Shown: in pieces, positions 33,434 to 34,213 of the stretch
Layout: each line of letters opens with the position of its first letter
Position numbering within the stretch: position 1 is the stretch's first letter
NCBI GenBank assembly: GCA_021537435.1
Contig: GCA_021537435.1_3050.1
Length of the DNA stretch: 64,000 bases
Direction: 5' to 3' (one strand)
Source of the DNA: a phage
Notes under the pieces: model-generated
Seen by the model: only the letters and a program-made list of their open reading frames with translations
Told to the model about the DNA's origin: nothing
Database searches by the model: none
Position numbers and translations under genes: made by a program

Positions 33434-34213
33434 ATGGCAGTAGCAGGACCGTGGGTAGGATCGTCTGCAGTAATTAATACAGGACAAAATTGGATGGGTG
33501 GCGCGGCCCAACGATTAAGAATGGGTGCTCCATTTTGGATGAGTAATATGATAGGTCGATCTGTTGAAGTAATTCACACGCTTGGAGCAGACCATAACTT
33601 CAATGGTCAATGGTTCCGAGATAGATGTTTTGAGGCAGGTAGTGCACCTATAGTGTTTAATATTACTGGAGATTTAGTATCATATTCTAGAGATGTTCCT
33701 TTATTCTTCATGTATGGAGATACACCTAATGAATACGTTCAACTGAACATACACGGCGTAACGATGTATGGTCGTGGTGGGAATGGTTGGGCCGCTGGTG
33801 CAATTGGAGCATCTGATGGCGGTGTATGTATCCAGAATGATATAGGTGGACGTCTGCGAATTAATAATGGCGGAGCTATTGCCGGTGGCGGCGGTGGTGG
33901 TGGTGGTTATTCACAAGCCAACAACTGGGCGGGAAAATATGTTTGTGGCGGCGGTGGCGGTCGTCCATTCGGCTTAGGCGGAAATAATGGTGCTCGATGG
34001 CCTGGTGGTAATGCTAGTTTGACGTCTCCGGGTGCTGGCGGTAATACTGGTACAGGGTATTATGCAGGTGGAGGTGGTGAAGTTGGTCAGCCAGGACAAT
34101 ATGCTAATCCAGGTTCTGGTTATTCAACACCTCCGACAAATCCTGGTGCTGCTGTAGCAGGATCAGCTCCAACATGGCAGAATGTTGGAGCAATATATGG
34201 TTCAAGAGTATAA
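33434..34213 (+). CDS. 38: tail fibre adhesin gp38 (T2-type, glycine-rich motifs)
   Basis: 259 aa from ATG with GGAGG SD; glycine runs GGGGGGGG and CGGGGG separated by variable segments. Confidence 0.85.

Follow-up and report, generated by a model that had tools for sequence, protein, structure and literature searches.

The window, a 64,000-nt stretch of phage DNA, very probably comes from a Tequatrovirus whose tail fibres are of the T2 type and carries its gene 38 at positions 33434–34213 (plus strand), and the gene product, gp38, is an adhesin of the OmpC type by the same assessment. The open reading frame (ORF) spans 780 nt and encodes 259 amino acids followed by a stop codon. The protein matches adhesin families in Pfam and shares its entire sequence (100% identity) with the gp38 proteins of the phages HY01 (AHK11096.1) and PEC04 (AKN44639.1). 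As a protein it is already known, its family, fold, loop–receptor contacts, and exact sequence having all been published earlier.

Gene 38 and its neighbours

A mechanical ORF list begins gene 38 at TTG 33422. The ATG at 33434 is preferred because a Shine–Dalgarno (SD) sequence, GGAGG (33424–33428, plus strand), lies 5 nt upstream of it, because the resulting N-terminus (MAV.GPW) is family-wide, and because the same start is annotated in HY01, PP01, AR1, and UFV-AREG1. The GC content of the C-terminal half of the gene is 52%, compared with 35% for the whole window. Minus-strand ORFs of 41–63 amino acids within gene 38 were regarded as spurious because a conserved coding gene encloses them.

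Gene 37 (30094–33399, plus strand; assigned by Pfam) encodes the distal subunit of the long tail fibre, which has 1101 residues here, as in UFV-AREG1, while that of HY01 has 912. The C-terminus of gp37 bears a Peptidase_S74 intramolecular-chaperone domain (aa 991–1050, Pfam), and its last 193 residues match S16 gp37 (6F45_A) with an E-value of 1.6e-43. Gene 38 is followed by the holin gene t (34244–34900, plus strand; Pfam Phage_holin_T, E=4e-116), and the order gp36, gp37, gp38, t gives the complete canonical 37-38-t synteny.

In a scan for exact T4-type late promoter motifs, the nearest one upstream of gene 38 was TATAAATA at 29398–29405 (plus strand), ahead of gene 36. One more site was found further upstream at 24328, and none on the plus strand from 29405 to 34213, so that no exact motif directly precedes gene 38. 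Since the nearest exact late promoter precedes gene 36, genes 36, 37, and 38 are probably co-transcribed, and gene 38 would be read from a polycistronic late 36-37-38 mRNA. A scan for sigma-70 promoters was uninformative (25 matches versus 22 expected).

Family assignment and domain organization of gp38

The protein passes the curated thresholds of both Pfam families of T2-type gp38 adhesins. Residues 45–259 match GP38 (PF05268) over the entire model (1–218 of 218; E=4e-72, score 243 bits, cutoff 25), and residues 1–40 match Gp38_N (PF21721; E=9e-21, score 74 bits, cutoff 25). Residues 1–257 align end to end with S16 gp38 (PDB 6F45_D, E=9e-53), and residues 37–259 align to PP01 gp38 (PDB 9V85), where the gp38 part of the structure differs by one substitution. 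The assignment in the earlier note on this DNA, a 259-residue T2-type adhesin distinct from the T4 chaperone, is borne out by these matches. The term "T2-type" is to be read as a class label only, given that the identity to T2 gp38 itself is 49% overall.

The N-terminal domain for attachment to gp37 (aa 1–40, 33434–33553, plus strand; Pfam Gp38_N) contains W7, W20, and W35, which are invariant in an alignment of 13 adhesins from four genera. In the S16 structure (6F45), the three tryptophans dock gp38 onto the gp37 trimer (PMC6851490). The central beta-helix domain (about aa 41–112, 33554–33769, plus strand) was assigned from 9V85 and 6F45, and its identity is 82–96% to T6, M1, and Ox2 and 40–41% to T2 and S16. 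In tblastn searches, residues 1–142 were 62–89% identical in many phages of the T6/M1/RB type, in which the C-terminal half did not align. The conserved N-terminal half that the earlier note described is thus present, with T2 gp38 lower, at only 41–45% identity over residues 1–112. The conserved C-terminal segment (aa 238–259, 34145–34210, plus strand) is 82–86% identical to T2, T6, and M1, and its 22 residues retain 55–86% identity to distant adhesins; G238, A240, V241, G243, P246, W248, G252, and G256 are invariant in the alignment of 13 adhesins.

According to the literature, gp38 is a monomer at the tip of the virion fibre in T2, K3, Ox2, and S16. By analogy, the present gp38 would be a 259-residue monomeric adhesin capping the trimeric gp37 tip, in which the glycine-rich motifs (GRMs) would form a "polyglycine-II sandwich" borne on the central beta-helix and five hypervariable loops (A–E) would protrude from the sandwich to bind the host receptor. 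Because only one position in residues 41–259 distinguishes gp38 from the crystallised chain of 9V85, the sandwich fold can, from this sequence comparison, be taken as experimentally established for the gp38 sequence. Virion location, fold, and OmpC contacts are drawn from the literature and not from the analysis of the window.

Glycine-rich motifs and receptor-binding loops

Glycine accounts for 33% of residues 111–259 and for 12% of residues 1–110. The three glycine blocks listed in the earlier note (GGGGGGGG, CGGGGG, and AGGGGEVG) are all present as written. The motif G151–G158 (GGGGGGGG; 33884–33907, plus strand) is 75–100% conserved and corresponds to a long polyglycine-II helix, its equivalent being helix 3 of S16 gp38 (151-GGGGGGGG-158). 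The motif G172–G176 (33947–33961, plus strand) lies in the CGGGGGRP block, where CGGGGG is C171–G176, and G172–P178 is invariant in the alignment of 13 adhesins. The motif G212–G215 (34067–34078, plus strand) belongs to the AGGGGEVG block (A211–G218).

The limits of the loops were taken from the PP01 structure. On the plus strand, loop-A (W119–I124, WAAGAI) is at 33788–33805, loop-B (Q161–V170) at 33914–33943, loop-C (N184–W189, NNGARW) at 33983–34000, loop-D (N204–Y209, NTGTGY) at 34043–34060, and loop-E (N225–S231, NPGSGYS) at 34106–34126, with the tip residue S228 encoded at 34115–34117. Loop-A is the same in PP01, AR1, and HY01 and is 0–17% identical to its counterparts in T2, T6, M1, Ox2, and S16. 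Positions 207/208 of loop-D are polymorphic in nature (TG, TR, TA, or Q-).

The alignment with T2, T6, M1, Ox2, and S16, a set from which K3 was absent, gave 75–100% identity in the GRMs and 0–38% in the loops. This agrees with the proposal of the earlier note that the segments between the glycine blocks are hypervariable receptor loops, and its further statement that such loops set host range is supported by published work (Trojet 2011, PMC3157838; Terasaki 2026, PMC12892980).

Comparison with known adhesins

The phages HY01 and PEC04 (Tequatrovirus hy01) share the 259-residue gp38, the hairpin described below, the SD sequence, and the flanking genes. The coding DNA of HY01 gene 38 differs at seven nucleotides, all synonymous. 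The PEC04 genome is the best database record for the window, at about 96% identity over 24 kb, and is not the same phage. In PP01, residues 41–259 are the same except for one residue (S228 here, A228 in PP01). Loops A–D are identical, loop-E matches at six of its seven residues, and the polyglycine-II sandwich and the beta-helix are shared. The novelty that the earlier note had implied for the loops did not hold, since they are those of known adhesins: HY01 and PEC04 have the identical gp38, which is the outcome that the note itself had named as contradicting it, and in PP01 the loops differ at one residue only.

The N-terminal attachment domain differs from that of PP01 by eight substitutions (V8I ... 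A32I). These cluster with synonymous changes in codons 16–33, which suggests that the N-terminal module was swapped relative to PP01. The gp38 of AR1, an OmpC-dependent phage of O157:H7, is 97% identical, with a shared loop set and synteny, and differs by G208R (loop-D), A228, S236, P257, and three N-terminal changes.

More distant adhesins share the scaffold. The gp38 of S16, a Salmonella phage of a different genus (Gelderlandvirus) with Salmonella OmpC as receptor, has the same three-domain architecture and retains the tryptophans, the GRMs, and the C-terminal motif, and the gp37 tips are homologous; the overall identity is 50% and the receptor loops are unrelated (0–17%). T2, T6, M1, and Ox2 have the family, the synteny, and the GRM scaffold in common with the present gp38, which belongs to a different specificity class because loops A–E are 0–38% identical to theirs. 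The classical receptors of these gp38 proteins are OmpF/FadL, Tsx, and OmpA.

Predicted receptor and the role of residue 228

All five loops are of the OmpC type found in AR1, PP01, and HY01. This loop set makes it almost certain, as a prediction from sequence, that the phage uses the porin OmpC of E. coli O157:H7 and Shigella as its receptor. HY01, with an identical gp38, has both E. coli O157:H7 and S. flexneri among its hosts (PMC5201272). The structure of the PP01 receptor-binding domain (PDB 9V85) and its contacts with OmpC were published in 2026 (Terasaki 2026, PMC12892980), and the PP01 papers cite earlier work naming OmpC as the PP01 receptor. In PP01, gp38 cross-links to OmpC at G208 (to OmpC loop 5) and at Y230, loop-E inserts between loops 5 and 7 of OmpC, into the cleft they form, and Y159, K168, and Y169 influence infectivity or recognition of LPS (PMC12892980). 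Mutagenesis in that study covered A228, Y209, and Y159; infection is lost with A228D or when A228 is deleted, A228V and A228L are tolerated, and A228 is described as a hydrophobic contact (PMC12892980). In the present phage, loop-E would likewise enter this OmpC cleft, and loops B and D would position it, possibly touching the LPS outer core. The binding of gp38 would be the reversible first step of adsorption and would set host range.

We infer that S228 leaves OmpC binding intact. The strength of binding or the preferred OmpC allele may differ from PP01, because S228 replaces a residue that makes a hydrophobic contact there and because A228D abolishes infection. It has to be considered whether S228 at the tip of loop-E, together with G208 of loop-D, shifts specificity away from the PP01 pattern, so that Shigella-type OmpC alleles or another porin are used in preference to O157 OmpC. 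Within the subtype, no other loop position varies as much as residue 228 (A, S, N, H, or V). Serine is carried by HY01, which infects O157 and S. flexneri, and by pSs-1, sb2, sb3, and Sfk20, which are Shigella phages, while alanine is carried by the O157 phages PP01, AR1, UFV-AREG1, and BECP11. Moreover, single changes at a loop tip can switch porins, as in RB68, where Q206L changes the receptor from OmpF to OmpW (bioRxiv 10.64898/2026.04.02.716166). However, PEC04, with an identical gp38, was isolated on O157:H7, HY01 infects O157:H7 as well, and KNP5 and sb1 carry A228 yet are Shigella phages, which makes the association of S228 with Shigella weak; it rests on about 15 records that are not independent, and serine is a conservative replacement for alanine. 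Such a shift is therefore unlikely, and use of OmpC remains the preferred reading, within which the polymorphism among S228, A228, N228, and H228 could tune the use of OmpC alleles, O157 versus Shigella. A far less probable alternative, which can be regarded as effectively refuted, is that gp38 acts solely as an assembly chaperone of gp37 and, like T4 gp38, is absent from the virion. The gene occupies the position of T4 gene 38, and some records of homologues are labelled "distal long tail fiber assembly catalyst". The record of T4 itself, however, notes that "gp38" of the T2 subfamily is unrelated to T4 gp38, as does Trojet 2011 (PMC3157838), and the present protein matches the Pfam adhesin families and the solved adhesins of S16 and PP01. 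In addition, gp37 bears its own C-terminal S74 chaperone domain, and amber mutants of T6 gene 38 form virions that are morphologically normal and do not adsorb (PMC3157838). No homology to the T4-type gp38 (183 aa) was found, the Pfam matches being to adhesin families only.

Hairpin at the gene 37/38 junction

The sequence between the gene 37 stop codon and the gene 38 SD contains an intercistronic C(UUCG)G hairpin (33406–33423, plus strand; from sequence and folding), as the earlier note had pointed out in describing a UUCG hairpin without a U-tract directly before the SD. Its arms, GAGGGGC and GCCCCUU, form seven pairs around the UUCG loop (about -13 kcal/mol) and are directly followed by GGAGGUUUAUAUG. 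A UUCG tetraloop closed by a C:G pair is extra-stable, and C(UUCG)G hairpins occur in T4 mRNA (Tuerk et al. 1988). Several such hairpins are present in intergenic regions of the window, the one at the 37/38 junction among them. An Rfam search of positions 33000–34600 (E<=1) gave no match, so the hairpin belongs to no RNA family curated there.

In its 66-nt context, the hairpin has a shuffle z-score of -1.8, which alone is not significant. Its position is kept in all T2-type phages examined, and in four of the seven pairs both partners have changed. The score for covariation is 0.50, compared with 0.24 for shuffles (none of 500 reached 0.50), and collapses when the partners are slid. Pairs were counted in an ungapped 18-nt alignment of eight distinct tetraloop versions; the triloop and pentaloop versions (T6, M1, and Ox2) and CF1, all of which fold at the same place, were left out of the count. 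MAFFT misaligned the structure both in the intergenic regions and in the set of hairpins that included CF1, and these alignments were not used for counting, and the distant gp38-like loci L033–L048 were set aside as lacking the hairpin or failing in start codon assignment. Scanning IMG/VR for T4-type junctions (AAGGAGAGGGGCTTCGGCCC) returned mostly unrelated phages and not T4 relatives, and could not serve to count such junctions. On this comparative evidence, the hairpin is a conserved intercistronic element of T-even phages.

Nearly the same hairpin, GAGGGGC-UUCG-GCCC(C/U)U, is found at the T4 37/38 junction. There it is part of the region where translation of gene 38 is initiated, with the SD on its 5' side and the AUG on its 3' side, so that folding cuts the spacing from 22 to 5 nt and enhances translation (PMC3014915). 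In contrast to T4, the SD here is on the 3' side of the hairpin at the normal 5-nt spacing, and no bridging is needed. A split ribosome-binding site of the T4 gene 38/25 type is not present, as the hairpin does not lie between SD and AUG. The predicted probability that the SD is unpaired is 0.64–0.84 with the hairpin and 0.20–0.56 without it, and the predicted accessibility drops on deletion of the hairpin or mutation of either arm. As a tentative proposal, the hairpin most likely folds fast and, as an insulator or stabiliser, holds the SD in single-stranded form.

Transcription termination offers another explanation. The hairpin could be a leaky terminator or attenuator that lowers gene 38 expression relative to gene 37 (3 gp37 : 1 gp38), or a stop on the minus strand for early "anti-late" transcripts from the asiA side. 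The annotation of phage vB_EcoM_G4507 calls it a "putative transcriptional terminator", UUUUCUU comes after a stem at the 37/38 junction of one distant relative (L032), and the stem on the minus strand of the window is followed by CUUAUUAUUA and was flagged by the terminator scan. This U-rich tail, however, is merely the complement of the AT-rich stop-codon region. The plus strand, where the scan flagged no intrinsic (rho-independent) terminator, has only two U after the stem and then immediately the GGAGG. Strong termination would also abolish an essential protein, because no exact late promoter lies between the hairpin and gene 38, and the same hairpin in T4 serves translation. Termination in any of these forms is consequently quite improbable, and exposure of the SD is the role that we favour.

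The T4 arrangement may have arisen when an unrelated gene 38 recombined in just downstream of a hairpin that was already there, a new SD being formed on its upstream side. In the broadest reading, the hairpin would be an ancestral functional RNA element of T-even tail-fibre operons, an SD-exposing insulator or stabiliser that marks the boundary of gene 38 exchange; the split site of T4 would be a product of recombination, and residue 228 could, separately, tune the use of OmpC alleles. Taken jointly, this scenario is conceivable but doubtful.

Implications

The gp38 described here opens no new question. Two points are marginally new. The polar residues S, N, and H at position 228 occur naturally in phages isolated on O157:H7, which mildly qualifies the interpretation of A228 as a hydrophobic contact in the PP01 study, and T2-type phages and T4 share the 37/38 hairpin while differing in its register to the SD. 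The practical value lies in annotation and in receptor prediction: the phage can be labelled, as a prediction, OmpC-dependent with a gp38 of the O157/Shigella type. Such a label may be of use in the design of phage cocktails and in foreseeing resistance, for example through mutations in loop 5 or loop 7 of ompC.

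Identification of gene 38 and the distal tail-fibre locus

Gene 38 is located at 33434-34213 on the + strand and encodes a protein of 259 aa from an ATG start, in agreement with the position and approximate length assigned in the earlier note. The mechanical ORF list places the start at TTG 33422 (+ strand; end 34213). A Shine-Dalgarno (SD) sequence, GGAGG at 33424-33428, lies with 5-nt spacing to ATG 33434, the N-terminus from this ATG (MAVAGPW) follows the pattern common to the homologues (MAV.GPW family-wide), and the genes of HY01, PP01, AR1 and UFV-AREG1 are annotated from the equivalent codon. 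The three poly-glycine blocks quoted in the note were all located in gp38, at residues G151-G158, C171-G176 and A211-G218. The glycine content is 33% in residues 111-259 and 12% in residues 1-110, and the glycine codons raise the local GC content to 52%; the window as a whole has 35%. The DNA encoding the glycine-rich motifs (GRMs) forms a 20-nt direct-repeat family, GTGGCGGCGGTGGTGGTGGT, at 33885-33904, 33945-33964 and 34068-34087 (copies at 90% and 75%). Repeats of this kind have reportedly been proposed by the Krisch laboratory as sites of intragenic recombination. Gene 38 differs from that of HY01 by seven synonymous changes, four of which are in GRM codons (155, 156, 171 and 172).

The protein matched Pfam GP38 over the full model (E = 4e-72) and Gp38_N (E = 9e-21). 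Gene 38 is preceded by gene 36 (29429-30085) and gene 37 (30094-33399; 1101 aa with a C-terminal Peptidase_S74 intramolecular-chaperone domain) and followed by the holin gene t (34244-34900), an arrangement canonical for the distal tail-fibre locus of T2-type phages. In comparison with the S16 gp37-gp38 complex, the C-terminal 193 residues of gp37 match chain 6F45_A (E = 1.6e-43) and residues 1-257 of gp38 align with 6F45_D (E = 9e-53). Every testable defining feature of the T2-type gp38 family was present, while homology of the window gp38 to the T4 gp38 chaperone was not found; the distinction between adhesin and chaperone drawn in the note is therefore upheld. When 13 adhesins of Tequatrovirus, Dhakavirus and Gelderlandvirus were aligned, W7, W20, W35, the GRMs and the C-terminal motif were invariant or nearly so. 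According to PMC6851490, the N-terminal domain of gp38 docks on the gp37 trimer in the S16 complex through these three tryptophans. The alternation of glycine motifs and variable segments was also confirmed by per-segment comparison with T2, T6, M1, Ox2 and S16, in which identity was 75-100% for the GRMs and 0-38% for the hypervariable loops A-E. Such an architecture of gp38 was reportedly described by Henning's group. It was reported by Trojet et al. (PMC3157838), and a structural account by Dunne et al. is summarised in PMC6851490. In the literature, gp38 is a monomer capping the gp37 trimer, its GRMs build a three-layer polyglycine-II sandwich, and its distal loops bind an outer-membrane porin.

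Hairpin at the gene 37/38 junction

A stem-loop with seven pairs and a C(UUCG)G tetraloop (GAGGGGC-UUCG-GCCCCUU, approximately -13 kcal/mol) is present at 33406-33423 on the + strand. As described in the note, it has no U-tract and directly precedes the gene 38 SD (33424-33428), with only UU between the stem and the SD on the + strand. The hairpin is not a listed family in Rfam, and in the terminator scan it did not fit the terminator pattern on the + strand. All T2-type phages examined, including T2, T6, M1, Ox2, JS98, S16, CF1 and IMG/VR contigs, have a GC-rich stem-loop after the gene 37 stop codon and before the gene 38 SD; the stems vary (GGGGC/GCCCC, GGGCC/GGCCC, GAGGGC/GCCCUC, AGAGCC/GGCUCU and GGGCUC/GAGCCC) and the loops are mostly UNCG. 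Among eight distinct tetraloop versions, a small and eye-selected set that is supportive rather than rigorous, 92.9% of the cells were paired, four of the seven pairs had changes on both sides, and the covariation score was 0.50 versus 0.24 for shuffled alignments (0 of 500 shuffles reached 0.50). All of these measures collapsed when the partners were slid.

Exact late-promoter motifs on the + strand of the window occur only at 24328 and 29398, the latter just before gene 36, so the most likely template for gene 38 translation is a 36-37-38 late transcript. Partition function calculations with three context lengths gave an unpaired probability of the SD of 0.64-0.84 for the wild type, 0.43-0.56 after deletion of the hairpin, and 0.20-0.38 when either arm was mutated. 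We tentatively prefer a role of the hairpin as an insulator or stabiliser that would leave the SD accessible. Less likely alternatives are a leaky attenuator and a terminator acting on the minus strand. Possibly, the hairpin is merely an inherited landmark of the junction. The T4 gene 37/38 junction (NC_000866 159620-159650; 81-111 of locus L059) has nearly the same hairpin, GAGGGGC-UUCG-GCCCUUC, with the SD (AAGGAG) on its 5' side and the AUG of an unrelated gene 38 on its 3' side. This is a "split" ribosome-binding site, in which folding of the hairpin shortens the SD-to-AUG spacing (22 nt to 5 nt) and enhances translation (PMC3014915). The SD of the window, like that of all T2-type phages and unlike that of T4, is 3' of the hairpin, so that bridging is unnecessary. 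The downstream gene 38s of T4 and T2-type phages are unrelated, so that the hairpin resembles a conserved landmark of a module boundary.

Further GC-rich C(UUCG)G hairpins are found in the window at 2350-2335, 3232-3211, 39554-39539, 42432-42415, 42661-42644, 58688-58667 and 63917-63898 on the - strand and at 29370-29391 on the + strand. Some, for example those at 39554-39539, 42661-42644 and 2350-2335 on the - strand, are just 5' of an SD-like sequence, some others are followed by U-tracts and are terminator-like, and 3232-3211 and 58688-58667 have the same 22-nt sequence, AAGGACTCCTTCGGGAGTCCTT. The UUCG tetraloop was discovered in a class of T4 mRNA hairpins (PMC4371310), and the window hairpins fit this class. 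Approximately 14 of the 21 IMG/VR contigs matching AAGGAGAGGGGCTTCGGCCC (L060-L080) have the order SD, GGGGC-UUCG-GCCCC hairpin, short spacer, and ATG with an ORF; the downstream proteins are of several types, e.g. MAYSQQIKDTVKK..., MGLFSRKK..., MTKIPEPK... and MAVIYLRHP.... These contigs suggest a wide occurrence, outside T4 as well, of split ribosome-binding sites with exactly this hairpin as the bridge.

In the 38-t intergenic region (34214-34243), AAGGAGG is preceded by GAATAAATA, which has one mismatch to the late promoter motif of T4, TATAAATA; besides read-through from gene 38, a weak late promoter of its own may serve holin t. Gene t (+) and a 90-aa ORF at 34901-35173 (-) are convergent and abut at 34900/34901 with zero gap; this ORF occupies the position of T4 asiA, and t and asiA are likewise convergent and abutting in T4. 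A 14-pair terminator-like stem at 34943-34975 (+ strand), followed by CTTATCTTCT, is located inside the 3' end of the ORF.

Identity to known adhesins and modular variation

The earlier note had named identity of the variable loops to a known adhesin as an outcome that would count against it, and such identity was found. A tblastn search of 50,697 phage records identified HY01 gp38 as a 100% identical protein, and the exact-sequence look-up returned AHK11096.1 (HY01), AKN44639.1 (PEC04), YP_009148690.1 and one bacterial-assembly record. The window gene 38 product is an already known protein, correctly annotated in the note. Over the 1-kb locus, identity is 99% to UFV-AREG1, HY01 and PEC04 and 96-98% to pSs-1, AR1 and PP01. 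The whole phage was absent from the searched collection, in which the best record is approximately 96% identical over 24 kb. AR1 gp38 is 97% identical to the window protein, S16 gp38 is 50% identical with the same fold, and the classical adhesins of T2, T6, M1 and Ox2 have the scaffold in common but unrelated loops. The closest solved structure, 9V85, comprises residues 41-259 of PP01 gp38 fused to sfGFP, and the sole difference in this crystallised domain is S228 in the window versus A228 in PP01.

The N-terminal attachment domain (aa 1-40, 33434-33553) appears from sequence comparison to behave as a separately exchanged module, independent of the receptor-binding domain. PP01 differs from the window by eight substitutions and clustered synonymous changes in codons 8-33, and the remainder is almost identical. 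In the comparison of two loci (L003 and L012) and four protein cluster members (P0002, P0004, P0006 and P0015), one OmpC-type receptor-binding domain occurred with HY01-, PP01-, JS98- and T6/M1-type N-termini; bov9_1 and several cluster members combine the window-type domain with a T6/JS98-type N-terminus. The length of gp37 among phages with the same gp38 is 1101 aa (window and UFV-AREG1), ~1104 aa (PEC04), 1109 aa (PP01) and only 912 aa (HY01). Internal gp37 deletions arose repeatedly during laboratory evolution of PP01 on O157:H7 (PMC6027323), and the short HY01 gp37 may be their natural counterpart.

Receptor-binding loops and residue 228

The loops of PP01 gp38 are A (W119-I124), B (Q161-V170), C (N184-W189), D (N204-Y209) and E (N225-S231), and cross-links joined G208 to OmpC loop 5 and Y230 to OmpC loop 7, with loop-E entering the loop-5/loop-7 cleft of O157 OmpC (Terasaki et al., mBio 2026, PMC12892980). 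OmpC is also named as the PP01 receptor by earlier work cited in the PP01 papers. For reversible adsorption, the window phage would use the OmpC of O157/Shigella-type hosts; loop-E is probably the main determinant, positioned by loops B and D. S228 (codon 34115-34117) is the residue right at the loop-E tip. PP01 tolerates A228V and A228L, but its infection is abolished by A228D and by removal of A228 (PMC12892980). Among ~30 sequences of the AR1/PP01/HY01 subtype, natural variation is concentrated at 207/208 in loop-D (TG, TR, TA or Q-; codons 34052-34057) and at 228 (A, S, N, H or V). Ser is found in HY01, PEC04, ECp13, pSs-1, sb2, sb3 and Sfk20, and Ala in PP01, AR1, UFV-AREG1, BECP11, KNP5, sb1 and EC121; S228 seems to lean weakly, and not exclusively, towards Shigella isolates among these non-independent records. 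PEC04 (S228) and CAM-21 (N228) were both isolated on O157:H7, and a polar residue 228 is therefore compatible with O157 infection; the proposal that A228 of PP01 makes a "hydrophobic contact" needs mild qualification in this light.
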